From positions 1 through 36,864 of the forward strand of contig JBHIAD010000001.1 of the NCBI GenBank assembly GCA_046758405.1: DNA of 36,864 bases, given 5' to 3'. The DNA comes from Candidatus Methylomirabilales bacterium. Its GTDB lineage: Bacteria; Methylomirabilota; Methylomirabilia; Methylomirabilales; CSP1-5. Positions 13,498 to 30,341 of the stretch are shown here, piece by piece (the stretch's first letter is position 1; the number at the start of each line of letters is the position of its first letter). The notes beneath the pieces were generated by a model. That model saw nothing but the letters and a program-made list of their open reading frames with translations. It did not search any database and was not told the origin of the DNA. The translations under genes were made by a program, and so were the position numbers.

Positions 13498-14715
13498 TCA
13501 GGCGACGACACCCGTCCCCCGCAGGCGGGCGATGGAGGCCTGGTCAAGGCCTAGCCACTCCAGGATCTCGTCCGTGTGCTGACCGAGCGTCGGTGCCGGG
13601 CGCGAGATCACCCCGGGGGTGTTGGAGAGCTTGACGGGGATGCCGATTTGCCGGATGCCGCCGGCCACCGGGTGCTCCAACTCGACGACCATCTCGCGGG
13701 CCCGAATGTGGGGATCCTCATAGACCTGGGCCAGATTGTAGATCGGCCCAGCCGGGACCCCCGCTCGCTCCAGCCTGCTCAGCCAGGTCGCCGTGGTCTC
13801 CCGTTGAAAGATCGCTTCGAGGATCGCGGCCAGCTCCTGGTATCGCTCGGTTCGAGTGGCATTCTCGCGAAACCGCGGATCGGCGGTCAGTTCGGGCTGA
13901 CCGATTGCCTCACAGAGCTTCTCCCACGTCGGCTGATTGGCGGCCCCCAGGCTGATGGAGCCGTCCTTGGTCCGGAAGACCTGGTAGGGGGCGTTCAGTC
14001 GGTGGGCCGATCCCATCGGCTCGGGGATCTTGCCCGTCCCAAAGAAAATCGCCGATTCCCAGAAGGTGTACGCGATCGCCCCTTCGAGCAGCGAGGTATC
14101 GATCCGTTGTCCCTGCCCCGTCTTGAGCTTGTGGATGTAGGCACTCAGGATCGCGTAAGCCGCGTACATGCCCGCATTCAAGTCGGCGATCGGGACGCCG
14201 ACCTTCGTGGGAGGTCCTCCCGGATGACCGGTGATACCGATCAGGCCGCTCATTCCCTGGGCGACGAGGTCGAACCCACCTCGCAGGCGATAGGGCCCCG
14301 TCTGACCGAAGCCGGAGATCGAACAGTAGATGATCCCGACATTGACCGTGCGGATGGCTTCGTACCCAAGTCCGAGTTTTTCCATGGTCCCGGGACGAAA
14401 GTTTTCCACCAGGACATCGGCACGGCGGACGAGACGCCGGAAAAGCTCCTTCCCCGCATCGGTTTTCAAGTTCAGGACGAGGCTCCGCTTATTCCGGTTC
14501 ATGGCCAGAAAGGCTGCCGACTCCCCCGCGATGAAGGGGGGGCCCATCCGTCGAGTGTCATCCCCCCCGTCGGGGCGCTCGATCTTGATCACGTCGGCGC
14601 CCATGTCACCAAGCAGCAGGGTGCAGAAGGGCCCCGCCATGATCTGGGTGGTGTCGATGACCACCATCCCCTCGAGGGCTCGCGATGGCTGCTGCACGGT
14701 CTCCATGGGTGTCAT
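13498..14715 (-). CDS. Family III CoA-transferase (CaiB/BaiF-like)
   Basis: VVIDTTQIMAGPFCTLLLGDMGADVIKIERP, the typical N-terminus, with GGFDLVAQGMSG in mid-protein. The start is uncertain: ATG 14715 or 14706 (GGAGG upstream), or the track's GTG 14790. Confidence 0.85.
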   Translation of the reverse strand: MTPMETVQQPSRALEGMVVIDTTQIMAGPFCTLLLGDMGADVIKIERPDGGDDTRRMGPPFIAGESAAFLAMNRNKRSLVLNLKTDAGKELFRRLVRRADVLVENFRPGTMEKLGLGYEAIRTVNVGIIYCSISGFGQTGPYRLRGGFDLVAQGMSGLIGITGHPGGPPTKVGVPIADLNAGMYAAYAILSAYIHKLKTGQGQRIDTSLLEGAIAYTFWESAIFFGTGKIPEPMGSAHRLNAPYQVFRTKDGSISLGAANQPTWEKLCEAIGQPELTADPRFRENATRTERYQELAAILEAIFQRETTATWLSRLERAGVPAGPIYNLAQVYEDPHIRAREMVVELEHPVAGGIRQIGIPVKLSNTPGVISRPAPTLGQHTDEILEWLGLDQASIARLRGTGVVA

Positions 14716-14815
14716 CGCCTCCCCCCACAACCCACCCGCGGGCACGCGATTCCGCTGGAGCGAGGGGGCGGTCTCACGCGCACCCTCCACCTCGGGCGGG
14801 TCCCGGGTCCCAGGT

Positions 14816-15604
14816 TCAACGCCCCTCGAATCGGGGCTGACGCTTCTCCAGGAACGCCCGTCGCCCCTCCTGAAAGTCCGCGGTATCGTAGCAGGTAAAG
14901 GGGAGCCGCTCTTGCTCGGGGGTCAGTCCCACAAGGCCGGGATTGGTGAGCACCGTTTCGAGGATCTCCTTGTGCCGCTGATGCGCCAGCGGTGCCAGCC
15001 GGGACACCTCGACCGCCAGCTTCCAGACCGTTTCCTCAATCGCGGCCAGGGGCACCAGGCGTGAGATGAGTCCGACCCGGAGGGCCTCTTCGGCGTCCAT
15101 CAGCCGGGCCGTCAACAGAAGATCCATGGCGACCCCCGGTCCAACCAGGCGGACAAGCCGCCGCATTTCCCGATATCCAACCAGAAGCCCCAGCCTCGCG
15201 ATCGGGATCCCGAACCGGCTGTTGTCCGCCGCCACCCGGATGTCGGTCGCCGTGGCCAGCTCGCAGCCGCCACCCACGCAGAACCCGGTGATCAGCGAGA
15301 CCGTGGGCCTCGGCAGTGCCGCGATCGCCTCCAGGGCCGCTTCCACCGCCCGGGAGTACTGCCGGGCCACATCCGAGTTGTTCCGCCACCGGTCGAACTC
15401 GGCAATGTCCGCCCCGGCCGAAAAGCAGTCCTGGTTGGCTCCACGGAAGACCACCACCCGCACCGACTCATCCTTCGCACATTCCTCCATGAGCCGGGTG
15501 ATCTCTCGCCACATCTCGTAGTGGATGGCGTTTCGCTGCTCCGGGCGGTTGAACGTAACCGTCGCGACGCCGTCCCGCTGTTCGATCAACAACTCCCGGC
15601 TCAT
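14816..15604 (-). CDS. Enoyl-CoA hydratase/isomerase (crotonase) family protein
   Basis: MSRELLIEQRDGVATVTFNRPEQRNA..., FSAGADI, GFCVGGGCELA (oxyanion-hole motifs). The track's N-terminal 140 codons overlap the upstream gene and were discarded. Confidence 0.85.
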   Translation of the reverse strand: MSRELLIEQRDGVATVTFNRPEQRNAIHYEMWREITRLMEECAKDESVRVVVFRGANQDCFSAGADIAEFDRWRNNSDVARQYSRAVEAALEAIAALPRPTVSLITGFCVGGGCELATATDIRVAADNSRFGIPIARLGLLVGYREMRRLVRLVGPGVAMDLLLTARLMDAEEALRVGLISRLVPLAAIEETVWKLAVEVSRLAPLAHQRHKEILETVLTNPGLVGLTPEQERLPFTCYDTADFQEGRRAFLEKRQPRFEGR

Positions 15605-15662
15605 GGTTCCGATTCCTCCTCCTCGCGGAAGACTTGCCTTCTGGCGGTCGCCTCCTGGGACG

Positions 15663-18563
15663 TCATCCCACCATCCACTCTGCCAGGACCTCCGCCGGGT
15701 GCCCGGCCCAGCGTGCGGTCCCCTGGGCGATCTGCTGCCGACAAGAGACGCCGGGTGCGACGATGACCGTCTCGGGCCCCGCCGATTCCACGGCCGGAAA
15801 GAGGCGCCGTGCCCCAATGGCCATGGAGAGCTCGTAGTGCTCGCGCTCGAAACCGAAGGAGCCCGCCATCCCGCAGCAGCCGGCGTCCACATCAGTGATC
15901 GTGAGCTCCGGGACGCGCCGGAGCAGCTCCACCACCGGTCCGGTCCCGACGCTCGCCTTGAGGTGACAGTGGCCATGGAGAAGCACCCGGCGCGCGCCGG
16001 GGGCGAAGTGCAGGTCCAGGGCACCCTCCTCAGCGAGCTGGTTCAGGAATTCCTCGAGCAGAAAGGAGCCCCGCGCAACCCCCTCGGCCTCAGGACCATC
16101 CACCAGTTCCCGGTACTCCTCGCGGAAGGTGAGGAGGCAACTCGGCTCGCACCCGACGATGGGGATGTGGGCTTCGACGTACCGGTGCAGCCGACGGACG
16201 TTCTCCCGTGCCTGCTCCCGCGCCGACTCCAACAGCCCCTTGGAGATCATCGGGCGGCCACAGCAACCTGCCTCCGCCAGCAGGACCTGAAACCCGGCCC
16301 GTTCAAGGAGTTTTGTCGCCGCCCGGCCGACCTCCGGGTAGTGGAAGGTCATGAAGGTGTCGGCGAAGAGGGCCACCTGACCCCGGCGCCCTGGCGGCGA
16401 GGGCCCCCGGGTGCGAAACCACTGGCTGAAGGTCGGCCTGGCGAAGGGGGGGAGCCGCCGCCGCCGGTCGACCCCGCCGAGGTGATGGAGCGCGAGGCGG
16501 GTCAGCGGAAAGGCAAGCAGCCAGTTGGAGAGGGGGGCCAATCGCGAGCCGAATTTACCGAGGGTCCACGCATGGGCGAAGAGCCGCGCCCGGAGCGGTA
16601 CGCCGTGCTCATGGTGGTACGCCGCCAGGAACTCGGACTTCAGCTTGGCCATGTCTACCCCCTGGGGGCACTCACTCTTGCAGGCCTTGCACTCGAGACA
16701 GAGATCCAGCGTTTCGTACAGCCGGTGACCGGTCAACGCTGACGGCGGCAGGGTCCCGGACAGAACTGCGCGGAGCGCGTTGGCGCGCCCGCGGGTGGAG
16801 TGTTCCTCATCAAGGGTCGCCATGTATGACGGACACATCGTGGCCTCGTCCTGCTTGCGGCACCTGCCCACCCCGGTACAGCGCTCCACGGCCTGGGCGA
16901 ATGTCTCACTCCGGAAGGCCTGGACCGGGGTCACCGAGACCGTCCGATAGGCCTCGCCGTACCGCAGGTGCTTCACCACCAGGTCGGGATCGTCCCCGAC
17001 GATCTTCCCAGGGTTCAAGAGGCCACGGGGATCGAAGCACGCCTTCACCTTCGCAAAGGCCTTCGCCAGGTCACCGTACTGGTCGCGGATAAAACCGGTG
17101 CGGGCCAGACCATCCCCGTGCTCGGCGCTGATCGTCCCGTGGAGGCGCCAGACAAGCTGATGGCACTCCTCGGCAAAAGACCGGATCTTGGCAATGTCGC
17201 GGGAATCCCTCATGTTCAGGCAGGGCATGATGTGGAGGTTGCCATCCCCCGCATGGCCGTATATGGCTGCGACCACGTCGTACTGTTTCAGCAGGGCCCG
17301 GACGCCGGTGATGAACTCTGGAAGGCGCGAGGGGTGGACCGCCGCGTCCTCGATGAAGGCGACCGGCCGACGCCCCCCCTGCACTTCCCGGAGCGCCGAG
17401 CCGGCAGCCTTGCGGACCGCCACCAGCTCGGTACGGCTTGCCGCGTCGGTGGCCAGGATCATGTCCTCAGCCAGGCCCAGTCCCTCGACGACCCGTCGCC
17501 TGCTCTCCTCCATGCGGCCCCGGACCTCGTCCGGATTGTCGCCCTCGTGTTCCAGCAACAGGACCGCTTCGAGCGCCGCGGGCAGGAAGGCCCGGAGGTC
17601 CGGGTCGGCCTCGCGCGAGACATCGAGGAGTGTCCGCTCGATGACTTCGATCATGCTCGGCTGCTGCTCGCGCAGAACCGCCACCGCCTCCCCCATCTTT
17701 TCCAGGGAGCCGAAGGTGAGGAGGGCGAGCAAGCGGTGACGCGGCTGACCAATCAGCCTGAGGGTGGCCTCGGTGAAGACCCCGAGGGTCCCCTCGGAGC
17801 CCACCAAGAGCTGCGTCAGGTCCAGCCGTCCATTCGCCCGCACCCCCCAGAGGTTGTAGCCGCAGTTGTTGTTGGTGACCTCGGGCGCCCGGGCCTGCAT
17901 CTCCAATCCGTACTGCTCGAGCACGTTGAGCACTCCCCGAAGGATCCCCCCGCTGAGGGGATGCTCGCACCAAGCGACAGCAGCCGCTCCCCCCTCCGCA
18001 AACGGCTCAAACCGCACAATGTCGCCGCTTGCGAGGACCACTTCGAGGCTCTCCACGTAGTTCCGGGTCGGGCCGTACTTGACCGAGTGGGAGCCCTTCG
18101 CGTTGTTCGCCAACATCCCGCCAAGGGTGCACACTTCTCCGCTGGACGGATCGGGCGGAAAGTACTTGCGGTGTGGAAGGAGGGCCTGAGTGAAGGCGTT
18201 GAGCACGACGCCGGGCTGCACCCGCGCGCGACTGCCCTGCGGATCAATCTCGAGAATGCGGTCCATATGCCGCGTGAAGTCCAGGACGATTCCCGCCCCC
18301 AGGGCCTGCCCCACCCGGCTCGACCCCCCGCCCCGGGCGATGATGGGGATGCCCCGCTCCGCCGCGTACCGGACCGTCGTTACCACGTCCCCACGATCCT
18401 TCGGGAAAACCACAGCCACCGGCGGGACCCGGTACATGCAGGCCCCGGTGCTGTACAGGGCCCGGCTCATTTCATCGTTCCGCACCTCTCCCGCGATGGC
18501 CGGGCCGAGATCGGCGGCCACCGCCCGGGCTCGTGCCGCAGTGTCACGGGACGCACTCACCAC
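15663..18563 (-). CDS. FAD-binding oxidase fused to 4Fe-4S and CCG cysteine-rich domains (GlcD+GlcF / YdiJ-like 2-hydroxyacid dehydrogenase)
   Basis: 966 aa. N-terminal PCMH-type FAD domain (VVFPKDRGDVV..ARGGGSS), the FAD-oxidase C-terminal domain (ISAEHGDG), the ferredoxin motif CLECKACKSECP, and two CCG-type regions (CEPSC.., DAGCCGMAGSFG). The GTG start lies 1 nt after the porG stop. Confidence 0.85.
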   Translation of the reverse strand: MVSASRDTAARARAVAADLGPAIAGEVRNDEMSRALYSTGACMYRVPPVAVVFPKDRGDVVTTVRYAAERGIPIIARGGGSSRVGQALGAGIVLDFTRHMDRILEIDPQGSRARVQPGVVLNAFTQALLPHRKYFPPDPSSGEVCTLGGMLANNAKGSHSVKYGPTRNYVESLEVVLASGDIVRFEPFAEGGAAAVAWCEHPLSGGILRGVLNVLEQYGLEMQARAPEVTNNNCGYNLWGVRANGRLDLTQLLVGSEGTLGVFTEATLRLIGQPRHRLLALLTFGSLEKMGEAVAVLREQQPSMIEVIERTLLDVSREADPDLRAFLPAALEAVLLLEHEGDNPDEVRGRMEESRRRVVEGLGLAEDMILATDAASRTELVAVRKAAGSALREVQGGRRPVAFIEDAAVHPSRLPEFITGVRALLKQYDVVAAIYGHAGDGNLHIMPCLNMRDSRDIAKIRSFAEECHQLVWRLHGTISAEHGDGLARTGFIRDQYGDLAKAFAKVKACFDPRGLLNPGKIVGDDPDLVVKHLRYGEAYRTVSVTPVQAFRSETFAQAVERCTGVGRCRKQDEATMCPSYMATLDEEHSTRGRANALRAVLSGTLPPSALTGHRLYETLDLCLECKACKSECPQGVDMAKLKSEFLAAYHHEHGVPLRARLFAHAWTLGKFGSRLAPLSNWLLAFPLTRLALHHLGGVDRRRRLPPFARPTFSQWFRTRGPSPPGRRGQVALFADTFMTFHYPEVGRAATKLLERAGFQVLLAEAGCCGRPMISKGLLESAREQARENVRRLHRYVEAHIPIVGCEPSCLLTFREEYRELVDGPEAEGVARGSFLLEEFLNQLAEEGALDLHFAPGARRVLLHGHCHLKASVGTGPVVELLRRVPELTITDVDAGCCGMAGSFGFEREHYELSMAIGARRLFPAVESAGPETVIVAPGVSCRQQIAQGTARWAGHPAEVLAEWMVG

Positions 18564-18564
18564 G

Positions 18565-19113
18565 TCACTTCCCCCGGGTGCTTTCGAAACCGGCGTGCAG
18601 CGCCTCGAGGCCGGCCTTTACCATCCGGTCCTTCCCGCCCGCGTTCTTGAGGAGCGCTTCGACCGTGTGGAGCTGCACGAGCTTCATCAGGGCGATGAGG
18701 GCCCCGACAAGGACTGGGGCCAGCTCCGCCTTGTGGGCCTTCGCCACGTCGCTCAGGTCCAGGGTCACCAACCTGGCCTTGTCGGTGAGCGCGAGGAACA
18801 CTTCGCTGTTGATGAGCAGGAGCCCCCCCGGTTTGAGGCCGCCCACCACGTTCACCTCGCTGATCACCGTCGGATCGGTCACGATCACTGCATCCAGAAA
18901 GGACTCTTGCTGGTAGGTCTCAATGGGTGCTTCGTCCATCCTGAGATGCGCCGTCTCCGGGGTAAATCCCCGGAGGAAGAGCCAGGGGGGACGGAACTGG
19001 ACGTGCTTCCCCTCGATCAGGGCAGCCTCGGCCAGCAACTTCGGAGCCGCCACGAAGGGGGCCACACGATCGTACCGGGGCTCGCGGCGGCCATGAAACC
19101 GGAGCTCCTTCAT
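18565..19113 (-). CDS. 2-oxoacid:ferredoxin oxidoreductase gamma subunit (divergent)
   Basis: 182 aa. LRFHGR..KLLAEAALIEGKHVQ..TAHLRMDEAPI..DAVIVTDP..GGLLLINS follows the POR gamma layout, but the usual GRGGQG motif reads GRREPR. Located directly after the beta subunit with a 4-nt overlap. Confidence 0.7.
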   Translation of the reverse strand: MKELRFHGRREPRYDRVAPFVAAPKLLAEAALIEGKHVQFRPPWLFLRGFTPETAHLRMDEAPIETYQQESFLDAVIVTDPTVISEVNVVGGLKPGGLLLINSEVFLALTDKARLVTLDLSDVAKAHKAELAPVLVGALIALMKLVQLHTVEALLKNAGGKDRMVKAGLEALHAGFESTRGK

Positions 19114-19991
19114 CGCCTCGCTCCCCAGGCGGCATCGACCTGCTGCTGCAGTGACTGGATCTCGCGGGGGCGGAGCCCAGCGAACCGCCCTTGGAGGAGG
19201 AGGTACTCTCGCACCGGGCGGCGGCGTTTCGGTCTGTAGGTCACCCGCATTTCCCCCCCGTCTACCTCGGAGAGGATCCAGAGGCCGGTCTCCACCGCCA
19301 CCTTCGTGACGTCAATGGTGTCGGTGTGAGGGAAGCCCCAGGCGATCGGGCAGGGGGTCAGCACTTGAATGTACCGGAACCCCTTGACCTGAGCAGCCCG
19401 GTGAAGCTTCCGCCGGTAATCGTCCGGATGCGAGACGGCCGCGGTGGCGACATAGGGCACGCCGTGGGCCGCCATGATCCGTGGCACGTCCTTCTGGAGG
19501 GCGGGTGTGCCGGCCGGGGTGGTCGGGGTGCGGGCGAGGCCCGGCGTGAGCGAGGTCGCCTGGCCCTGAGTGTTCATGGCAACCTCGTTGTCATAACAGA
19601 TGTACAGGATGTGCTCGTTCCGGCTGGCCGCCCCGGAGAGGGCCTGGAAGCCGATGTCGGCAGTCCCCGAGTCCCCAGCGAAGCAGACCACGTGGACGTC
19701 TTTGAGCCCCCGCACGTCGTACGCGCGCCTCAGTCCCGTGGCTGCCGCCGGCGCACTCTCGAAGATCCAGTGAACAAAGGGGACCTGCCACGCGGTGTGG
19801 GTGTAAGAGAGACTGAAGGTCGCAGCACAGCTCGCCGGGCAGAGGACGGCCATCTTCGACCCAAGCGTCTCGGCCAGGATGTCTGCGGCCGGGAGCGCTC
19901 CGCACCCTTCGCAGGCGGTCCCCATCAGGACGGGCGGCAGGGTAAACCGATCTGACTTCGGGAGGGTTGCGATCCGATTGGGGCCTGCCAT
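19110..19991 (-). CDS. 2-oxoacid:ferredoxin oxidoreductase beta subunit (TPP-binding)
   Basis: 293 aa. CEGCG cluster-ligand motif and the TPP-binding GDSGTADIGFQALSGAASRNEHILYICYDNEVAMNTQGQ. Confidence 0.85.
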   Translation of the reverse strand: MAGPNRIATLPKSDRFTLPPVLMGTACEGCGALPAADILAETLGSKMAVLCPASCAATFSLSYTHTAWQVPFVHWIFESAPAAATGLRRAYDVRGLKDVHVVCFAGDSGTADIGFQALSGAASRNEHILYICYDNEVAMNTQGQATSLTPGLARTPTTPAGTPALQKDVPRIMAAHGVPYVATAAVSHPDDYRRKLHRAAQVKGFRYIQVLTPCPIAWGFPHTDTIDVTKVAVETGLWILSEVDGGEMRVTYRPKRRRPVREYLLLQGRFAGLRPREIQSLQQQVDAAWGARR

Positions 19992-20007
19992 CCCGTCCTC
20001 CTTATTA

Positions 20008-21237
20008 TTATCCTGGGCGTGCTACCGGGTAAAACTGCGGCGACTCATCGCGCACCCGGTCCTGATTGAGGGCGAGCCAGTGGATCCCCCCATCGGTACG
20101 ATCAAAGGGGGTGCTCCCTCTGATTGCCCGCCGGGCGAGGTCTTTGATCTGTGAGATGGTCACATCCCGTCCCGCCAATCCGGCGATAACCCCGAGAACC
20201 CGTGGGGGTTTCGGCAGGCCGTAGAGTGCGGACCGCACCTCTTCGTACAGTGCGCCGTGGGCGCCCGCCGCGCAGTTGCGGTCGATGGTGACGACGACCT
20301 CCGCCTGGCCGAGGGCCTCCCGGAGCAGATGCGCAGGGAAGGGTCGATAGACTCTGAGGGCACAGCAGGCTGCCGAGGCTCCCTCGCTCTCCAGCTCCTT
20401 CGCTGCGCGGCGGGCCGCTTTGACGATCGAGCCCATGGCCACAAGCACGCATCGCTTCTTTCCCTCCGCACACTCCACGAGGCCACGTGGGCGCGTCCCG
20501 AAAGCCTCGGCGTAGCTCGAGGCGACCTCGGGGATGACCGTGAGGGCGCGGTTCATTGCCTGGTGCTCGGCGTACTTGAACTCTGTGTACCACTCCGGCG
20601 GTGTCGGCGGGTTCAGCGCCCGCGGGTGCGCAGGATCCAGCAACGCCTCAACTGCAGGCGGACCCAGCCAGCGATTTACGGCATCGGCCTTGGGGACCAG
20701 GACCCCCTCCGCCGTGTTCGAGTGGATGAAGGACTCGTAGCAGAACATCCCTGGGAGGCGGACCCGGCGGTCCTCGCACACTTTGTAGAGCTGCACGCAC
20801 GTCTCCAACACATCTTGGGCGTCTTCGCAGAAGATCTGAATCCATCCTGACCGGCTGACCCCGAGGGCATCGTTATGGTCGGCATAGCGGGTGTGGGGGA
20901 CCGAGATCCCTCGGCTCACCACCGCCATCACGATGGGGCATCGGCTGCCGGAGGCAGTGTATAGGTGCTCGGCCATGAGGAGAAGTCCCTGCGAGTTCGT
21001 CGCCGTAAAGACCCGCGTCCCGCCCAGAGAGGCCCCGACCGCCGCCGCCATCGCTGCGTAGTCCGACTCCATGTTGATGAACTCACACGGGAATGCCCCG
21101 GCTTGGATATCCCGGGCAAGCTCTCCGAGCATCCCCGACTGGGGGGTGATCGGGTAGATCGGGATGACCTGCACTCGCGCCAGGCGTACCGCTCGTCCGA
21201 CCGCCTGATTACTCGTCAGGAGCTCAACCGCCTCCAT
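20008..21237 (-). CDS. 2-oxoacid:ferredoxin oxidoreductase alpha subunit
   Basis: MEAVELLTSNQAVGRAVRLARVQVIPIYPITPQS..ATNSQGLLLM, the typical POR/KOR alpha N-terminus. I used the start at 21237. The track's 39 extra residues are unsupported. Confidence 0.85.
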   Translation of the reverse strand: MEAVELLTSNQAVGRAVRLARVQVIPIYPITPQSGMLGELARDIQAGAFPCEFINMESDYAAMAAAVGASLGGTRVFTATNSQGLLLMAEHLYTASGSRCPIVMAVVSRGISVPHTRYADHNDALGVSRSGWIQIFCEDAQDVLETCVQLYKVCEDRRVRLPGMFCYESFIHSNTAEGVLVPKADAVNRWLGPPAVEALLDPAHPRALNPPTPPEWYTEFKYAEHQAMNRALTVIPEVASSYAEAFGTRPRGLVECAEGKKRCVLVAMGSIVKAARRAAKELESEGASAACCALRVYRPFPAHLLREALGQAEVVVTIDRNCAAGAHGALYEEVRSALYGLPKPPRVLGVIAGLAGRDVTISQIKDLARRAIRGSTPFDRTDGGIHWLALNQDRVRDESPQFYPVARPG

Positions 21238-21450
21238 CCCGCTCCTCCCTGGTCCACACCACCCCCGATCGCCCACCATCCTTCGGAAGGGCCCAACGAT
21301 GGCCAGATGCGACTGCGTGAGGATACTCCCGCCGCAAAAACTGTGCCGGGGCAATGGCGCGGCGTGGGTCAGGTAAATCTCATTCGGAGTAGCTTGTATT
21401 GCTTTATTCTCAAACAGTTATACACCACTTCTGGCATCCTGAATACAGGA

Positions 21451-25095: not shown

Positions 25096-25500
25096 TCAGC
25101 GTGTGGAGCTGGCCGCCCGCATGCCCACCATGGCCAGCATCCCCGTGATACCCATGAGGCCCAGGACGAGGAGTCGGGAGAGGAGACCTGTGCGATACTG
25201 ATCTGAAGTGAAGACATCCGGGAGATGGAAGAGGCCTGCTCCGATGAACCAGACCAGGCCAACGCCGACGTGGAGCAGGTGCCCCCGTCGGCGGTCGTGG
25301 GCCGACAGCACCAGGGCAATGCCCTGCAGCGCGTACAGGGCGGCGAGCGCTCCGGCCAAGACCGCGTTGGAGAGGCCCAAGGCGGCGGCCTCTCCGTAGA
25401 AGAAATCCTCCGCCGCATGGGGCACCGTGAAGAGATAGCTCACGATTGAAACCGTCAGGACCCCGTAGGCCCGCCTCCGGACCGCCATCAGATCCCCCAC
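25096..25500 (-). CDS. Small integral membrane protein, unknown function (about 4 TM helices)
   Basis: 134 aa with four hydrophobic stretches (VLTVSIVSYLF, VLAGALAALYALQGIALVL, VGVGLVWFIGAGLF, LLVLGLMGITGMLAMV). Overlaps the SDR stop by 13 nt. No motif I recognise. Confidence 0.6.
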   Translation of the reverse strand: MGDLMAVRRRAYGVLTVSIVSYLFTVPHAAEDFFYGEAAALGLSNAVLAGALAALYALQGIALVLSAHDRRRGHLLHVGVGLVWFIGAGLFHLPDVFTSDQYRTGLLSRLLVLGLMGITGMLAMVGMRAASSTR

Positions 25501-26222
25501 GCCCCGCTCACGTGCATGTTCGCCCCATTCACATAGCGCGCGTCGTCAGAGACCAGGAAACGCACCACACCCACGACGTCCTGCACCGAGCCGACGTAGC
25601 CGGCCGGGATCCGTTTCTCCATCGCGTGCAGCTCCTCGGCCGGCGCGCTCCCCGAGTCGACGAACCCCGGGGAGATGGCGTTCACCGTGATCCCGTGCGG
25701 AGCGAGCAGCCGTGCAAGGGAGCGGGTCAGGACCAAGACGCCCGCCTTGGCAATGTAATGGGCCGTGAGCTGGGGCATGGCGACCAGCTGGTCAGCCGTC
25801 GCCATGGCGAAGTTGATGATGCGCCCCCACTTGCGTGTCATCATGCTCGGGGCGACAGCTCGGCTCAGATAGAAGACCGGATGCAGGTTGTTGTCGAACA
25901 TCCTGTGCCACCCGTCAATCGTCTCCTCCAGGAGGTTCACCCGGTGGTATGGGCCAGCCCCGTTGACGAGCAGGTCGATCCGTCCCCAACTCTCTTCAAC
26001 CTGCTTCACCAGCCGCTCCGCCGCCTGGGCGTCCGACACGTCGCACTGAATTGCCAGGGCCTGACTCCCCGCTGCCCGGATCGCCTGTCCGGTCTCCTCC
26101 GCCTCCCGGGCACTTGCTCGGTAGCAGAACGCGATCCCCCAGCCTGCCGCTGCCAGGTCGAGGGCGATCGCCCGCCCAATCCCGCGGGCCCCACCCGTGA
26201 TCAGGGCTACCTGCTCGCTCAT
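25488..26222 (-). CDS. SDR family oxidoreductase (FabG-like)
   Basis: 244 aa. TGGARGIGRAIA (TGxxxGxG), NGAG, and YIAKAG (catalytic YxxxK). The start overlaps the HAD stop (ATGA). Confidence 0.9.
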   Translation of the reverse strand: MSEQVALITGGARGIGRAIALDLAAAGWGIAFCYRASAREAEETGQAIRAAGSQALAIQCDVSDAQAAERLVKQVEESWGRIDLLVNGAGPYHRVNLLEETIDGWHRMFDNNLHPVFYLSRAVAPSMMTRKWGRIINFAMATADQLVAMPQLTAHYIAKAGVLVLTRSLARLLAPHGITVNAISPGFVDSGSAPAEELHAMEKRIPAGYVGSVQDVVGVVRFLVSDDARYVNGANMHVSGAWGI

Positions 26223-26974
26223 CGACCCGTGCCTTCCGTGCGCCTCGGTCTCCCTCGCCGCGAGAACTCTCCGTCATGCGGTGCACCATCGGCAAGGGCG
26301 AACTCCACCACCGCCCCCAGGTCTTTGACCTTCGGGCAGTCCAGGTCGGGCCACACCCCGAGCGGATCGAGCAGCAGGGCCTCCAGCCCCGCGCGACGCG
26401 CGCCGAGGACGTCAACCGAATAGTAGTCGCCCACGTAGACAGCCCGCGACGCCTCGACTCCGGCTTCCCTGAGGGCCATGCGAAAAATCCGGGGATCGGG
26501 CTTTTCCACCCCGACCATACCGGAGTCGACGATCACCTGCAGGAACCCCACCAGCCCGGCGGCCTCGAGGTGGTCCGCGATGCGCCCATCCGAGTTCGAA
26601 ACGACCCCCAGGATGATCCCTTTTCCCCTAAGCGTCGCCAGGGTATCCGCCGCACCCGGGGCCGCCCGACGCCACAGCCCGCGCTCGGAGTTGGCCCGGC
26701 AGAGGTCCCCGAAGACCTCCTCGACTGCACCATTCCACGGAAGGCCCAGCCCTTCGGTGACCATCTCCATGTACCGGCGGAACACGCGAGAAGCTTCGGT
26801 AGCCTGCTGCTCGGCCAGAAAGGGGTCCATCCGGACCCGGGCCCGGATCTCGGCCTCACGAACCTCCTCCGAGGTCCGGGAGATCCCGACCCGCTTGAGG
26901 CGCTCGCTGATGAAGGGATAGTCCAGCTCGAGGAGCGTGTTACCTGCGTCGAAGAGGATCGCCTCGAGGACCAT
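26219..26974 (-). CDS. HAD-superfamily hydrolase, subfamily IA (REG-2-like variant)
   Basis: ILFDAGNTLL (motif I with Gly at the Asp+2 position), VVSNSD (motif II), VEKPDPRIF and YVGDYYSVDVLGARRAG (motifs III/IV). GGAGG RBS. Confidence 0.85.
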   Translation of the reverse strand: MVLEAILFDAGNTLLELDYPFISERLKRVGISRTSEEVREAEIRARVRMDPFLAEQQATEASRVFRRYMEMVTEGLGLPWNGAVEEVFGDLCRANSERGLWRRAAPGAADTLATLRGKGIILGVVSNSDGRIADHLEAAGLVGFLQVIVDSGMVGVEKPDPRIFRMALREAGVEASRAVYVGDYYSVDVLGARRAGLEALLLDPLGVWPDLDCPKVKDLGAVVEFALADGAPHDGEFSRRGRPRRTEGTGR

Positions 26975-27065
26975 GGGGCCTCCGCACTTTCCAACGGCAT
27001 CCCGCCACCACGGCTGGGGAGGGCGGTGGCTGCCCGGTCAATAGGAAGGCGGGAAACCGGCCCCG

Positions 27066-27632
27066 CTACACGTCGATCGCCTCGGGCGGGCGCGTCAGTG
27101 CCATCAGGACTTGGGGAAAGATCTCCTCGGTCCGCTTGCGGAGGTCCTCCGGCCGGAGGTTAGCGATCGGATGGGCGATGGCCACCACCGGATAGGTCGG
27201 CATCCCGAAGTTCTTTGCATGCTGGCGGGCGGCCTGCTTGAATCCCTCGGTCACGATAGTCGCGGTGACCACGCCCCGCCGTTCCAACTCTGCCGCGTCG
27301 CGCAAACTGCCCGACGTGCAGGACCCTCACCCCCCGACCGCGCTCACGACGAGGTCGCACCGCTGGACAAGGCGGTCAATCAGCTCCGGCGGGGCCGCCT
27401 TGGTGTAATACTCCTTCCGCTCCCGAACGACCTCCGCATACTCGAAACGCTCCGCCAGCAGCTCCTCGAGTCGCGCCAAGATCTCATCGGCGCGCTCTTT
27501 GCTGTTGTCGAGGAACCCGATCCGGAGACCGGTCAGCTCGGGATTGCGCGGGGCCAGAGGGAAGGACTCAGTCAGCTCGTCAGCAACGGGCTCTAGGACC
27601 ACGAGTCCAGCGCCCTTACGCTCATAGCTCAT
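27066..27632 (-). CDS. Predicted selenoprotein with a U-G-S-C redox motif (UGSC/GrdB-PrdB-like); in-frame TGA at 27327-27329 read as Sec102
   Basis: Track ORFs 27327..27722 and 27066..27305 share one frame and are separated only by TGA plus 7 sense codons. Joined, they read ..DLVVSAVGG-U-GSCTSGSLRDAAELERRGVVTATIVTEGF... The downstream ORF has no ATG or RBS of its own (the track used TTG). ATG 27632 follows GGGAGG with a 7-nt spacer. A hairpin starts 8 nt after the TGA. Confidence 0.65.
27290..27321 (-). promoter_or_regulatory. SECIS-like hairpin immediately 3' of the in-frame UGA
   Basis: Minus strand: UGA-gggtc-CTGC-a-CGTCG-ggcagtttgcg-CGACG-cg-GCAG. That is 4 bp plus 5 bp separated by a 1x2 internal loop, with an 11-nt apical loop containing GUUU about 19-29 nt after the UGA. 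Confidence 0.4.
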
Positions 27633-27740
27633 CGACACGCCTCCCGTCGGTGTCGAGACTGCACGTCCGGGGGACACCACCCCGCGCGCCATGACCTGGC
27701 GCGCAAATCGGAGCGCGGGCACCGCCCGCTATCACACCTC

Positions 27741-28844
27741 TCATCCCCCGTCGCAACATCCTGCGGTACCCTGGATGGGGACACGTTTGGTGACGACCCG
27801 GCTCCCCAGACCGCCCCAGCCGGGAACGACGAGGGAAAAGCGCCCCTCGCTCCCCCCCGCCACGAAGAGCACCACGTCATCTGGCCGACCGACCACCGGA
27901 ACGAGGGCGTTCGGATCGCTTCGGTCGACCCATTTCGGCCAGTAGCGATCCCACGTCTTGTCACCGAAGTATTCTCCTCCGCGGACGAGGTCTTGTGCCC
28001 GCCGCCGCGCCGTCTCAAAGAGGAACTGTTGCGCGTCCCGCTTACTCCACCCCTCACCGGCCAGGGTCGCCACGTGCTCAGGTCCGAGCACCACCACGAT
28101 CTCGCCGCCACGATACATGTTGCTGTTCCCCATCGTCGCCATGGTATCGGCGATCGTGGTGAGGATCCCCCGGGCCGTCGTCGACATGTGGTCCCCGACA
28201 TTGTGGGGCGCCTCGGCGGCAAAGACGGTCACGGCACTGTCCGTGGACCGCAGGCCTCGCTCCACGTGCAGCGGCTCCCACGGGGAGACCTCCTCGTTCT
28301 CCGCCACGCAGTACGTATATTTCCCCGGGTGGCCGAAGGTGGCCTTGTCGGTCAGGCCGGGAATCCCGCCTCCCAAGTTGACCATACACAACCGTACCGC
28401 GCGGCCGATGGCGGCATTCGCCCGGTTCCCCTGTCCGAAGCAGTTCGCCCCGGTGTTCATCTTGAGCGTCTGCCGGACCGGTCCATTGACGATCAGCAAA
28501 GGTGTGGCGACGTGGGTCGTGGATTGGACGCCATTCAGATTGAAGGCGTCGTCGCCGACCGCCTCAATCGCCGCGACCACCACTGGGAAGTATTCGGGGC
28601 AGCAACCGGCCATGACGGCGTTGACGGCCACCTTCTCCAGGGTTGCGCGACCGTACTTGGGAGGCAGCACTGCCACCACCTCGTCGCCGTCCCGATCAAG
28701 GGTTCGAAGCATCGCCTCTACCCGTTCCTCTGTGGGCGGGATGATCGGCAGGCCATCAGTCCAGCCCCGAGCGTCGAATTGCTCTAGGACATCAAAATAA
28801 TCGGTCACCTCAATCCGTTTTGATCGCAAGAGCAGCGTTTCCAT
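27741..28844 (-). CDS. Conserved-looking hypothetical protein, 367 aa, no domain I can name
   Basis: Long ORF with ordinary, non-shadow amino-acid composition (WTDGLPIIPPTEERVEAML, AVNAVMAGCCPEYFPVV, NGVQSTTHVATPLLIVNGP, ends GTAGCCDGG). ATG 28844 is preceded by AAGGAGA with an 8-nt spacer. Co-oriented with the selenoprotein gene, 108 nt upstream of it. Confidence 0.6.
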   Translation of the reverse strand: METLLLRSKRIEVTDYFDVLEQFDARGWTDGLPIIPPTEERVEAMLRTLDRDGDEVVAVLPPKYGRATLEKVAVNAVMAGCCPEYFPVVVAAIEAVGDDAFNLNGVQSTTHVATPLLIVNGPVRQTLKMNTGANCFGQGNRANAAIGRAVRLCMVNLGGGIPGLTDKATFGHPGKYTYCVAENEEVSPWEPLHVERGLRSTDSAVTVFAAEAPHNVGDHMSTTARGILTTIADTMATMGNSNMYRGGEIVVVLGPEHVATLAGEGWSKRDAQQFLFETARRRAQDLVRGGEYFGDKTWDRYWPKWVDRSDPNALVPVVGRPDDVVLFVAGGSEGRFSLVVPGWGGLGSRVVTKRVPIQGTAGCCDGG

Positions 28845-28886
28845 CAGGATCGTCTCCTTGCGTGACGGTGACATGTACGTTCTTCA

Positions 28887-28915
28887 AGGCTACGCGCCGT
28901 GGCGGCGCGTGTCAA
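28887..28915 (-). promoter_or_regulatory. Sigma-70-type promoter candidate for the 367-aa/selenoprotein operon, with a palindromic spacer
   Basis: Minus strand: TTGACA (28915-28910), a 17-nt spacer cgcgccg-cca-cggcgcg (7-bp inverted repeat), then TAGCCT (28892-28887). Lies about 40 nt upstream of ATG 28844. Confidence 0.4.
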
Positions 28916-29017
28916 GAGCTTCCCGCGCACCGGCGAGGCGAGCTCGGTTTATCCCGCCCCGGTCGGTCCAGACCGCCGTCCGGGAGGAACCGGGCGCGTG
29001 TACCCTGCCGAATCCTG

Positions 29018-29046
29018 TTGACAAGAGGCGGCCGGGACTCTGTAGT
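29018..29046 (+). promoter_or_regulatory. Sigma-70-type promoter candidate for the LarA-like gene
   Basis: TTGACA (29018-29023), a 17-nt spacer, then TGTAGT (29041-29046). GGAGG (29068-29072) and ATG 29079 follow. Confidence 0.4.
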
Positions 29047-29078
29047 GTCAAGTGCACCCCTGCCCGTGGAGGTCCCCA

Positions 29079-30341
29079 ATGGTGACACTGCCCCGCATGG
29101 TCACGGTGCGAGCCAGGCGCCGTGGCCCCGAGCTGAGACAACCGGGTCGGGCCACGGCGCGGGCCCTCAGGAATCTCCCTCTGTCCCCCCGCCTCCGTCC
29201 GGGCCAGCGCGTGGCAGTCACCGCCGGCAGTCGCGGGATTGCCCGTGTGGCCGAGATCACCCGCGGGCTGGTCGACTTTCTCCGCGACCGGGAGGCCGAG
29301 CCCTTCATCATCCCGGCGATGGGAAGCCACGGCGGCGCGACGGCCGAGGGCCAGCGCGCCGTCCTCGCGGAGTACGGAATCACTGAAGCCGCCATGCGGG
29401 TCCCGATCCGCTCCTCCATGGAGGTGATCGAGATCGGCCGCACACCGGAGGGTATCCCGGTCTACCTGGATCGGCACGCGGCCGAGGCGGACCACATCGT
29501 CGTGGTGAACCGGATCAAGCCCCACACCGCTTTCGCCGACCGCTTTGGCAGTGGCCTGATGAAAATGATCGCATTGGGTCTGGGCAAGCACCGTGGGGCG
29601 ATCGCCTGCCACGAGGCCACCATGGCGTACGGCTTCGCTCGAGTCATCACGGCCGTAAGCCAGGTGGTGCTCGCCAAGGCCCCCATTCTCTTCGGCCTGG
29701 CCATCCTCGAGAACAGCCAGGGGGGCCTCGCCGCCGTCTCGGCCATCCCGGCCGAGATCCTCAAGGCCGAGGAGTTAAAGCTCTACCGCAAGGCGGCCCG
29801 GTGGGCGCCTCGGCTCCCCTTCGAGGAGCTCGACCTGCTCATCGTGGAGGAGATGGGGAAGCACGTGGCCGGGACCGGGATGGACACCAACGTGATCGGC
29901 CGGCGGTGCAGCCTCATTGAGCCACCCCCCAAGCGTCCCCGCATCGGTCGGATCTTCGTGCGCGGGCTCAGCCCCGAGACCCGGGGGAACGCCAACGGAA
30001 TCGGCCTCGCCGACTTCACCACGGACCGGGTCTGCGCGATGGTCGACCGGCACGCGACCTACATGAACGCGGTGACCGCGCGGACCCCCGATCATGCTCG
30101 GCTCCCGGTATCCTACCCCACCGACCGAGAGGTCCTCGATGTGGGGCTGCGCACAATCCGGACGCGCAACCCCATGCAGGCCCGCATCCTCCGGATCCAG
30201 AATACCCTGGAACTCAGTCGATTCCAGGTCTCCGAGGCCTTGCTCCCCGAGGTCCGCGCGCGGAGGGACTTGGTGACCGAAGGAGAGCCCGTTTCCCTCG
30301 AGTTCGACGCCGAGGGCTTTCTCCGCCCCTTCCACGCCTGA
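29079..30341 (+). CDS. LarA N-terminal-domain-like (DUF2088-related) protein, function unknown
   Basis: 420 aa. The layout recalls lactate-racemase-like proteins (RVAVTAGSRGIA where LarA has the DxTRP strand; IIPAMGSHGGATAEGQRAVLAEYGIT resembling the LarA xxGTHR segment). This rests on memory of the family, not on a search. I used the start at ATG 29079, after GGAGG. Confidence 0.5.
   Translation: MVTLPRMVTVRARRRGPELRQPGRATARALRNLPLSPRLRPGQRVAVTAGSRGIARVAEITRGLVDFLRDREAEPFIIPAMGSHGGATAEGQRAVLAEYGITEAAMRVPIRSSMEVIEIGRTPEGIPVYLDRHAAEADHIVVVNRIKPHTAFADRFGSGLMKMIALGLGKHRGAIACHEATMAYGFARVITAVSQVVLAKAPILFGLAILENSQGGLAAVSAIPAEILKAEELKLYRKAARWAPRLPFEELDLLIVEEMGKHVAGTGMDTNVIGRRCSLIEPPPKRPRIGRIFVRGLSPETRGNANGIGLADFTTDRVCAMVDRHATYMNAVTARTPDHARLPVSYPTDREVLDVGLRTIRTRNPMQARILRIQNTLELSRFQVSEALLPEVRARRDLVTEGEPVSLEFDAEGFLRPFHA

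Follow-up and report, generated by a model that had tools for sequence, protein, structure and literature searches.

A UGSC-family selenoprotein and an unclassified partner protein as a conserved two-gene unit, probably a two-subunit selenocysteine-dependent reductase

We analysed a 36,864-nt stretch of a Methylomirabilales (NC10-like) contig, the whole of which is referred to below as the window, and within it a locus of five co-oriented minus-strand genes and one divergent gene whose coordinates were taken from an open reading frame (ORF) map (Table 1). The conserved functional unit of this locus is a pair of genes, one encoding a 367-aa protein here called X and the other a UGSC-family selenoprotein carrying selenocysteine (Sec) at residue 102. 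The two proteins probably form a Sec-dependent reductase fed by a thioredoxin-type system, in which UGSC would be a minimal redox subunit of the GrdB/PrdB kind and X the substrate-binding, catalytic subunit. An earlier note on the same DNA had read all six genes as one undescribed selenoenzyme pathway; this pathway reduces to a two-gene cassette with clade-specific neighbours, and its Sec protein belongs to a known family. Few prokaryotic selenoprotein families are as abundant in aquatic metagenomes as UGSC, which would gain an assigned biochemical role if the two-subunit reductase reading is true.

The linkage between X and UGSC was assessed in metagenome loci gathered with an alignment of X proteins, an approach that replaced a scan of genome contigs with the single X protein, which had returned 2 loci only. 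The alignment-based scan gathered 80 loci, 78 of them non-redundant and encoding X proteins 43–57% identical to that of the window, and these were searched with the window's six proteins (tblastn), the UGSC hidden Markov model (HMM) and a counting script. An adjacent, co-oriented UGSC gene was found at 64 of the 84 X copies in the 78 loci, upstream of X in 37 cases and downstream in 27, and at 43 of the 54 copies for which the contig extends 800 nt or more to each side. The gap between the aligned X and UGSC segments had a median of 94 nt (68 pairs, from a slightly larger set of loci). X-UGSC pairs span Methylomirabilales, Rokubacteria, Betaproteobacteria, Ammoniphilus (Bacillota) and Tectimicrobiota, which bears out the tie between the 367-aa unknown and the Sec protein that the earlier note had drawn. 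When neighbouring ORFs within 5 kb were clustered over 82 loci, a third gene family occurred in at most 7 of them, the commonest being a TctC-type binding protein (7 loci), an ABC-F ATPase (6), a thiamine pyrophosphate enzyme (6), MmgE/PrpD (5), a short-chain dehydrogenase/reductase (SDR; 4), CoA-transferase III (3) and amidohydrolase_2 (3), with clusters named from representative sequences and not from a family scan. The contexts that we inspected also varied, with an amidase and a transporter next to the pair in Ammoniphilus resinae (L006), an AMP-ligase in a Tectimicrobiota metagenome-assembled genome (MAG) and a molybdenum hydroxylase elsewhere.

The X copies standing apart from UGSC include tandem X paralogues and a clade associated with a cold-shock gene. 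In the latter, an X subclade represented by five loci (L028, L054, L059, L062, L038), X stands without UGSC and is followed by a gene for a cold-shock protein (MAQGQVKWFNDAKGYGF...). Tandem paralogues were seen in L087, L047, L085, L009, L065 and L089, with three consecutive copies in L087 (1495-4676), and several contigs carry two X-UGSC pairs.

X and UGSC are also fused into single polypeptides in both orders, X-UGSC and UGSC-X, which constitutes Rosetta-stone evidence for a joint function. Fusions of X to the N-terminal half of UGSC end at the Sec codon (445–474 aa), those of the C-terminal half of UGSC to X come from gene calls starting past the UGA (~405–470 aa), and full-length UGSC-X fusions carry a Cys or degenerate motif (520–590 aa). 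Apart from UGSC, X is joined to an N-terminal AhpC-TSA/Redoxin domain (P0165, P0175, P0214, P0222, P0233), to the catalytic chain of ferredoxin-thioredoxin reductase (FTR beta, FeThRed_B; N-terminal in P0182, C-terminal in P0176, giving the architectures FeThRed_B-X and UGSC-X-FeThRed_B), to a C-terminal flavoprotein resembling thioredoxin reductase (TrxR) with an intact CAVC motif (Pyr_redox_2; P0192), and to a second X in tandem (P0137, P0166, P0172). All partners other than X itself are thus either thiol/selenol-disulfide redox modules or modules of electron input for these, and they are the main basis of the reductase mechanism proposed here. The conserved domain 'Unknown_1', which a 2008 survey of Global Ocean Sampling (GOS) data reported in fusion with UGSC (PMC2398784), probably corresponds to X. 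Several full-length UGSC-X fusions (P0130, P0141, P0207, P0212) have lost both redox residues of UGSC and kept Cys81 of X.

A model of the natural UGSC-X fusion P0181, which has a CGSC motif, both X cysteines described below and 51% identity to the window X, was built from 76 sequences with high confidence (predicted local distance difference test, pLDDT, 94.7; predicted TM-score, pTM, 0.94) and indicates that the fusion folds as one compact two-domain body. Its UGSC domain was modelled as alternating beta-alpha units around a parallel sheet, with the CxxC lying between a strand (86-92) and a helix (95-110). Structural matches of this domain in the PDB were MsuE, flavodoxins, WrbA and lumazine synthase, with TM-scores (TMt) of 0.4–0.59, and thioredoxin was absent among the 50 matches listed. 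The UGSC fold is therefore predicted to be flavodoxin-like, in contrast to the thioredoxin-like fold suggested for the family in the literature.

The Sec protein, scored with Cys in place of Sec, matched the whole profile of both NCBIfam NF041046 ('UGSC family (seleno)protein', an equivalog model; 150.2 bits against a cut-off of 125) and Pfam PF24696 (UGSC family; 178.4 bits against a cut-off of 25). By these profiles, and by its similar length, U-G-S-C motif and SECIS, it is a member of an already catalogued family, from which it does not differ at the family level, so the earlier description of an undescribed selenoenzyme locus held for function and not for the Sec family. UGSC was catalogued in the metagenome surveys of 2007–2008 (PMC2398784, PMC1976440), where the 'UGSC-containing protein' of GOS was a major family of 255 Sec sequences and 21 Cys homologues, relatively commoner in non-marine samples (PMC2398784), and reviews of 2022 and 2026 list it without an assigned function. 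Reading through the UGA of the window gene gives ...SAVGG-U-GSC-TSG..., with Sec102 and Cys105, and the Methylomirabilales subgroup shares a GG-UGSC-TSGS motif unlike that of most family members. With UGSC homologues in related loci read through their UGA in the same way, TGA was found at the Sec codon in 62 distinct genes, in the register TGA-GGN-NNN-TG(Y), and Cys in six of the listed loci (L036, L050, L052, L060, L064 and one other). A word-index protein search with the Cys-substituted query returned only one match, presumably an effect of database entries that stop at the UGA. Subgroups lacking the resolving Cys were seen as well, with GH-U-GSS-TPW in L039 and L051 and GH-C-GAS-SSW in P0133.

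Comparative analysis of the RNA downstream of the UGA revealed a selenocysteine insertion sequence (SECIS) hairpin with a 7-bp stem and a 5-nt loop, beginning 11 nt past the UGA and placing a loop G at +23 and a loop U at +24, the positions at which the E. coli fdhF SECIS contacts SelB. The copy in the window carries one G.G mismatch, and minimum free energy folding of its SECIS region alone gave another fold with an unremarkable z-score (−1.46), the hairpin being revealed only by comparison. Across 30 divergent UGSC genes, 6 of the 7 stem pairs showed compensatory changes, 89.5% of the alignment cells were paired compared to 19.5–47.1% with slid 3′ partners, and the observed values were reached by none of 500 shuffles. 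At stem columns 27/33 (window 27309/27303), covariation links the choice between UGG (Trp) and UGC (Cys) to that between GUC and GUG in a Val codon five codons further on. The two Val codons are synonymous, so selection on the protein could hardly account for this pairing by itself, which points to a constraint at the RNA level within coding sequence. Decoding of the UGA as Sec is well supported, beyond chance, and the UxxC selenoprotein of the earlier note is genuine. Rfam and tRNA scans of the window gave no match, tRNA-Sec included, and Pfam scans of its ORFs found no gene of the Sec machinery; the host is presumably Sec-competent.

A relation of UGSC to selenoprotein B was suggested by a GrdB/PrdB-type Sec stretch in GOS, '...VVLVPA-U-PVC-HQSVGLIAKQIEQQGIPTV...', which resembles the region around the UGSC Sec. 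When a 64-sequence UGSC profile was aligned to ten GrdB/PrdB fragments with hhalign, the match (P=7.7e-5, probability 62%, 74 columns) placed Sec on Sec and resolving Cys on Cys, with an equally spaced E-x-x-G-I-P-T-V strand, whereas the reversed, column-shuffled and unrelated X-profile controls gave P=0.17–0.88. Like UGSC, GrdB/PrdB (PF07355) present their U-x-x-C where a hydrophobic strand ends, with a helix and then an E-x-x-G-(I/L)-(P/S)-T-V strand behind it. Compared with these proteins, UGSC is far shorter and has no N-terminal GRDB domain. The GOS fragments matched PF07355 above threshold, and a search of 42 UGSC-containing sequences with the same model gave no match at E≤5. We dropped this miss as evidence against a relation to GrdB, since profile positions 345-347, where PF07355 stops, coincide exactly with the Sec, presumably because of seed sequences that end at the UGA. 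Neither the Sec loop nor any part beyond it is covered by the model, which explains why UGSC never matches. As judged from these alignments, UGSC appears to share the Sec module of selenoprotein B and not its N-terminal domain.

Protein X had no match in Pfam or NCBIfam, and none in Pfam at E≤5 across 76 homologues. The family is large, with 7965 matches among 8000 scored candidates of a database clustered at 90% identity and 5992 clusters at 50% identity (E≤1e-3). Its closest relatives (~70% identity) are encoded in Methylomirabilales/NC10 MAGs, and an identical copy was found on a Logan contig. An AlphaFold2 model from a 66-sequence alignment showed a confident alpha/beta fold (pLDDT 94.1, pTM 0.93). 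A profile search of PDB sequences returned nothing significant, and Foldseek found no close PDB relative, its best matches having TM-scores of at most 0.30: class I fumarate hydratases (E=1.7e-4, prob 0.95, TM-score 0.25–0.30, root mean square deviation (rmsd) ~16 Å) and 'Toblerone-fold' cyclic amide hydrolases (TM-score 0.16–0.21). Assignment of X to the fumarase or Toblerone fold was dropped at such low TM-scores, which indicate a sub-domain resemblance at most. Nine residues of X are near-invariant (D30, T38, C81, R141, N143, R148, C179, E182 and W189) and remain ~90–100% conserved in each architecture class among 280 X domains, including X without UGSC and the Redoxin, FTR and TrxR fusions; C81 and C179 reach ~95% or higher in every class. 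The C-terminus of the window X (27741-27770) is a low-confidence Cys tail, ...QGTAGCCDGG, with a C-x-D-G-like motif. A Cys within the last 14 residues occurs in 30 of 175 standalone X proteins, mostly from Methylomirabilales, and such a tail could be a swinging-arm redox tail.

In the mechanism that we propose, UGSC would be a small flavodoxin-like redox subunit whose Sec102-x-x-Cys105, at the junction of a strand end and a helix start, cycles between selenol/thiol and selenenylsulfide states. X would be the larger, substrate-binding subunit, contributing the Cys81/Cys179 pair, R141 and R148, and the acidic residues D30 and E182. Electrons would be supplied by a thioredoxin-type system, either NADPH/TrxR-like or ferredoxin/FTR-like, and pass via UGSC to the active site of X, where a small, probably anionic substrate would be reduced. 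The conserved arginines and the organic-acid and amide catabolic genes in the neighbourhoods suggest a small anionic metabolite as that substrate. The proposed division of labour resembles that of the Grd/Prd systems, in which selenoprotein B works with a separate larger substrate-binding subunit and is recycled by thiol-reducing systems; from the fusions, we infer a comparable larger subunit and thiol recycling for UGSC. It also resembles that of MsrA/B, LMW-phosphatase-type ArsC and PAPS reductase, in which a chalcogen pair is oxidised at each turnover and re-reduced by thioredoxin and TrxR, and Msr proteins are likewise fused to thioredoxin-fold and reductase modules. X-UGSC differs from these thioredoxin-dependent reductases in having no sequence or family match to them and in its two subunits, the large one being new. 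The broader proposition is more tentative: X-UGSC may represent a new class of two-subunit Sec-dependent reductases present across many phyla, fed by thioredoxin, TrxR or FTR and reducing a small anionic metabolite, with catalytic X proteins forming thousands of clusters without a close PDB relative and UGSC as a minimal relative of GrdB/PrdB. The function of UGSC has in any case become directly testable through an obligate-looking partner, fusions to the thioredoxin system and a Sec loop related to that of GrdB/PrdB.

Several points weigh against this reading of X-UGSC as a two-subunit reductase. Approximately 20% of X genes have no adjacent UGSC, which means that X can act with other partners or alone, and the neighbours of the pair are too varied for the substrate to be named. 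The similarity to GrdB/PrdB extends over ~74 columns at 62% probability and was obtained with ten metagenomic read fragments. X has no sequence similarity to GrdE/PrdA (PF09338), so that the analogy to Grd/Prd is a functional one and not whole-system homology. Pfam and NCBIfam scans of every locus ORF found no GrdE/PrdA partner, GrdA or Prd accessory gene; GrdA, GrdC/D and PrdC-F are absent from the locus, and the hosts are not Stickland fermenters. This agrees with the earlier view that the locus is not a reductase operon for glycine, sarcosine, betaine or proline, as scans of all six locus proteins with both libraries revealed no grdA-, grdE- or prdA-like ORF. A 2026 review still treats UGSC as uncharacterised (PMC13188914), and no described function was found for the locus core of X and UGSC, again as first noted. 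Finally, the arrangement LarA<>X-UGSC-HAD-SDR (<> marking divergent genes) recurs in four Methylomirabilales genomes, those of the window, L091, L092 and L094, with different outer flanks, which leaves room for a clade-specific functional link between the pair and its neighbours.

This recurrence speaks for the six-gene pathway of the earlier note, in which the LarA-like protein, X, UGSC, the HAD hydrolase, the SDR and the protein with four transmembrane segments (4-TM) would serve one reductive or epimerising small-molecule pathway from a shared divergent control region, and which now seems unlikely. L091, L092 and L094 share a Liv-type ABC transporter-(DPBB)-LarA22<>X-UGSC-(ADP-ribosylglycohydrolase or small ORF)-HAD-SDR order, LarA22 denoting the group-22 LarA-like gene, with outer flanks unlike those of the window. 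The 4-TM gene was found again only in L094 (49% identity), there with the same 13-nt overlap, and HAD, SDR and 4-TM are translationally coupled. Against a single pathway, tblastn with HAD, 4-TM and LarA of the window as queries gave no match at E≤1e-5 in the 78 non-redundant distant X loci, and the window SDR matched in six of them at 26–35% identity (L031, L058, L065, L073, L079, L083). Closer relatives show the parts to be separable: L095 has LarA22<>HAD-SDR without X-UGSC, L003 has an ABC transporter<>X-UGSC-ADP-ribosylglycohydrolase-HAD-SDR without LarA22, and L093 has X-SnoaL-UGSC in an unrelated place with none of LarA, HAD, SDR or 4-TM. SDR adjoins HAD in L003, L091, L092, L094 and L095, even where X-UGSC is absent. 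Distant LarA22 homologues, at 49–50% identity, had no X-UGSC nearby, and one of them lies beside GlcD/E/F-like genes (L097 7464-11687).

The two blocks also meet at a seam. The 91-nt gap between UGSC and HAD in the window holds a weak terminator-like hairpin, the one site found by a hairpin scan at the UGSC stop, below shuffle expectation and with a weak T-run; the hairpin marks where the X-UGSC pair gives way to the HAD-SDR-4TM block. In relatives this seam takes an extra gene, either an ADP-ribosylglycohydrolase or a 90-aa ORF; the former, a 316-aa family member, lies between UGSC and HAD in L003, L092 and L094 and not in the window. The lack of conserved linkage in related genomes, which the earlier note had named as grounds for refutation, was thus seen in full at long range and only by half at short range. 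X-UGSC is most simply read as a mobile two-gene cassette that lies at a LarA22/HAD-SDR seam in part of the clade; a functional link specific to the clade may exist but is not needed to account for the data. This clade-specific, separable placement makes LarA, HAD, SDR and 4-TM neighbours of the pair and not obligate members of a pathway.

A second alternative reverses the roles of the two proteins, making UGSC the terminal enzyme, either a peroxidase or a detoxifying thiol/selenol reductase, and X its recycling reductase, maturation factor or scaffold. The fusion of X to AhpC/TSA-type domains, which are usually terminal peroxidases, and the nearly constant Sec form of UGSC, typical of catalytic nucleophiles, are consistent with such an exchange. 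However, an X that supplied the electrons itself would have no need of the fused TrxR-like and FTR-beta modules, X carries no family signature for nucleotide or flavin binding, its conserved Arg, Asp and Glu residues are typical of a small-molecule site, and a fifth or so of X genes occur without UGSC. We therefore give the reversed arrangement only a small chance and retain X as the probable substrate-binding subunit.

It is less probable still, and distinctly so, that X has the structural type of Fe-S hydro-lyases or cyclic amide hydrolases and catalyses no redox reaction, with UGSC only supplying or protecting a metal or cluster ligand for it. The top Foldseek matches given above and the amidase or amidohydrolases in some neighbourhoods point in this direction, but TM-scores of 0.16–0.30 at an rmsd of 12–17 Å argue against a shared fold, X has just two conserved cysteines compared to the three cluster ligands of class I fumarases, and the fusions to thioredoxin-fold, TrxR and FTR modules would be left unexplained. 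Public gene calls split the gene into products of 101 aa and 68 aa, as if the UGA simply ended translation and left two small ORFs or a pseudogene. This reading can be dismissed, given that the halves match one HMM in register, that 62 distinct homologues keep TGA at this codon and a few, including full-length fusions, have Cys, and that the SECIS hairpin, with its covarying stem, stands at canonical spacing from the UGA.

Table 1. Features of the X-UGSC locus and its immediate neighbours in the window.
Feature	Position	Strand	Description
4-TM protein	25096-25500	-	134 aa (130-134 by start); four hydrophobic segments judged by eye; no family
SDR	25488-26222	-	244 aa; classical SDR; PF13561 + PF00106
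HAD	26219-26974	-	251 aa; HAD-IA family hydrolase; PF00702 + PF13419
Terminator-like G+C hairpin	27049-27066	-	Directly past the UGSC stop; hairpin scan
UGSC selenoprotein (split ORF)	27066-27632	-	188 aa; Sec102 in GG-U-G-S-C
SECIS hairpin	27297-27315	-	GUCGGGC / loop AGUUU / GCGCGAC
UGA read as Sec	27327-27329	-	Residue 102; in frame, halves both match the UGSC model
X	27741-28844	-	367 aa; conserved UGSC partner; no Pfam/NCBIfam model
Divergent intergenic region	28845-29078	.	234 nt; TTGACA hexamers on both strands
LarA-like gene	29079-30341	+	420 aa; NF052515 group 22

Among the neighbouring genes, the one described earlier as LarA/DUF2088-like could be placed more exactly, in group 22 of the LarA superfamily, by its score of 495 bits on NF052515 ('nickel pincer cofactor-dependent isomerase, group 22'), which exceeds the cut-off of 400 and covers profile positions 1-390 of 392. 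It is very distant from LarA itself and the 2-hydroxyacid racemases/epimerases (Ni_dep_LarA, 25.7 bits against a cut-off of 460), and a sequence search of the PDB with it gave nothing significant. In a weak phmmer alignment with the LarA structure 2yjg (E=0.028), H, H, K and H of the window protein lie opposite FHRG, EPH, GGRK and ANH of LarA, positions that we take to be the catalytic His pair, the Lys tethering the nickel pincer nucleotide and the Ni-ligand His. Approximately 10 kb away, the window encodes a 966-aa fusion of an FAD-linked oxidase with 4Fe-4S and CCG domains (15663-18563, minus strand; GlcD/GlcF-like). This gene, and the GlcD/E/F-like genes beside the distant homologue in L097, hint at a role of group-22 LarA enzymes in supplying a D-2-hydroxyacid oxidase.

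The HAD protein scored below the cut-offs of even its best NCBIfam subfamilies. Its motif I (window 26945-26974) reads FDAGNT(L/I)L, without the second Asp of DxDxT, and this FDAGNT motif is kept in five relatives (L003, L091, L092, L094, L095). The missing Asp makes the earlier label 'phosphatase-like' doubtful; the HAD fold stands (PF00702), and the protein is better called a HAD-fold hydrolase, not necessarily a phosphatase. The best NCBIfam match of the SDR was TmpR-like, at 236.8 bits under a cut-off of 325, and the 4-TM protein had no match in Pfam or NCBIfam.

The ORF map confirmed the five co-oriented minus-strand genes and the divergent LarA-like gene at the positions first reported, as well as the HAD/SDR overlap, an ATGA at 26219-26222. 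The 13-nt overlap reported between SDR and 4-TM (25488-25500) depends on the start codon, being 13 nt from the GTG at 25500 and 1 nt from the ATG four codons on, which is the start used by the gene call on the identical public (Logan) contig L001. The divergent spacer had been described as a 234-nt region with back-to-back TTGACA promoters. Its length and hexamers were reproduced (plus strand, 29018-29023; minus strand, 28915-28910 and 29051-29046), but a sigma-70-type consensus scan of the spacer (28845-29078) found no full promoter, as the −10 boxes match at just 3 of 6 positions, and the promoters are thus unproven.

The flanks of the locus are housekeeping in character. One side carries genes for citrate synthase, a DEAD-box helicase, a 2-oxoacid:ferredoxin oxidoreductase and the FAD-oxidase/CCG fusion, and the other those for RlmN, a TPR protein, MltG and RuvX; citrate synthase and MltG are presumed identities, named by recognising their sequences. 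Unrelated to the X-UGSC pair, an upstream block of organic-acid metabolism (window 13498-16024 and 18565-21354, both minus strand) encodes a family III CoA-transferase, an enoyl-CoA hydratase with an N-terminal extension of ~150 aa and a three-gene 2-oxoacid:ferredoxin oxidoreductase.

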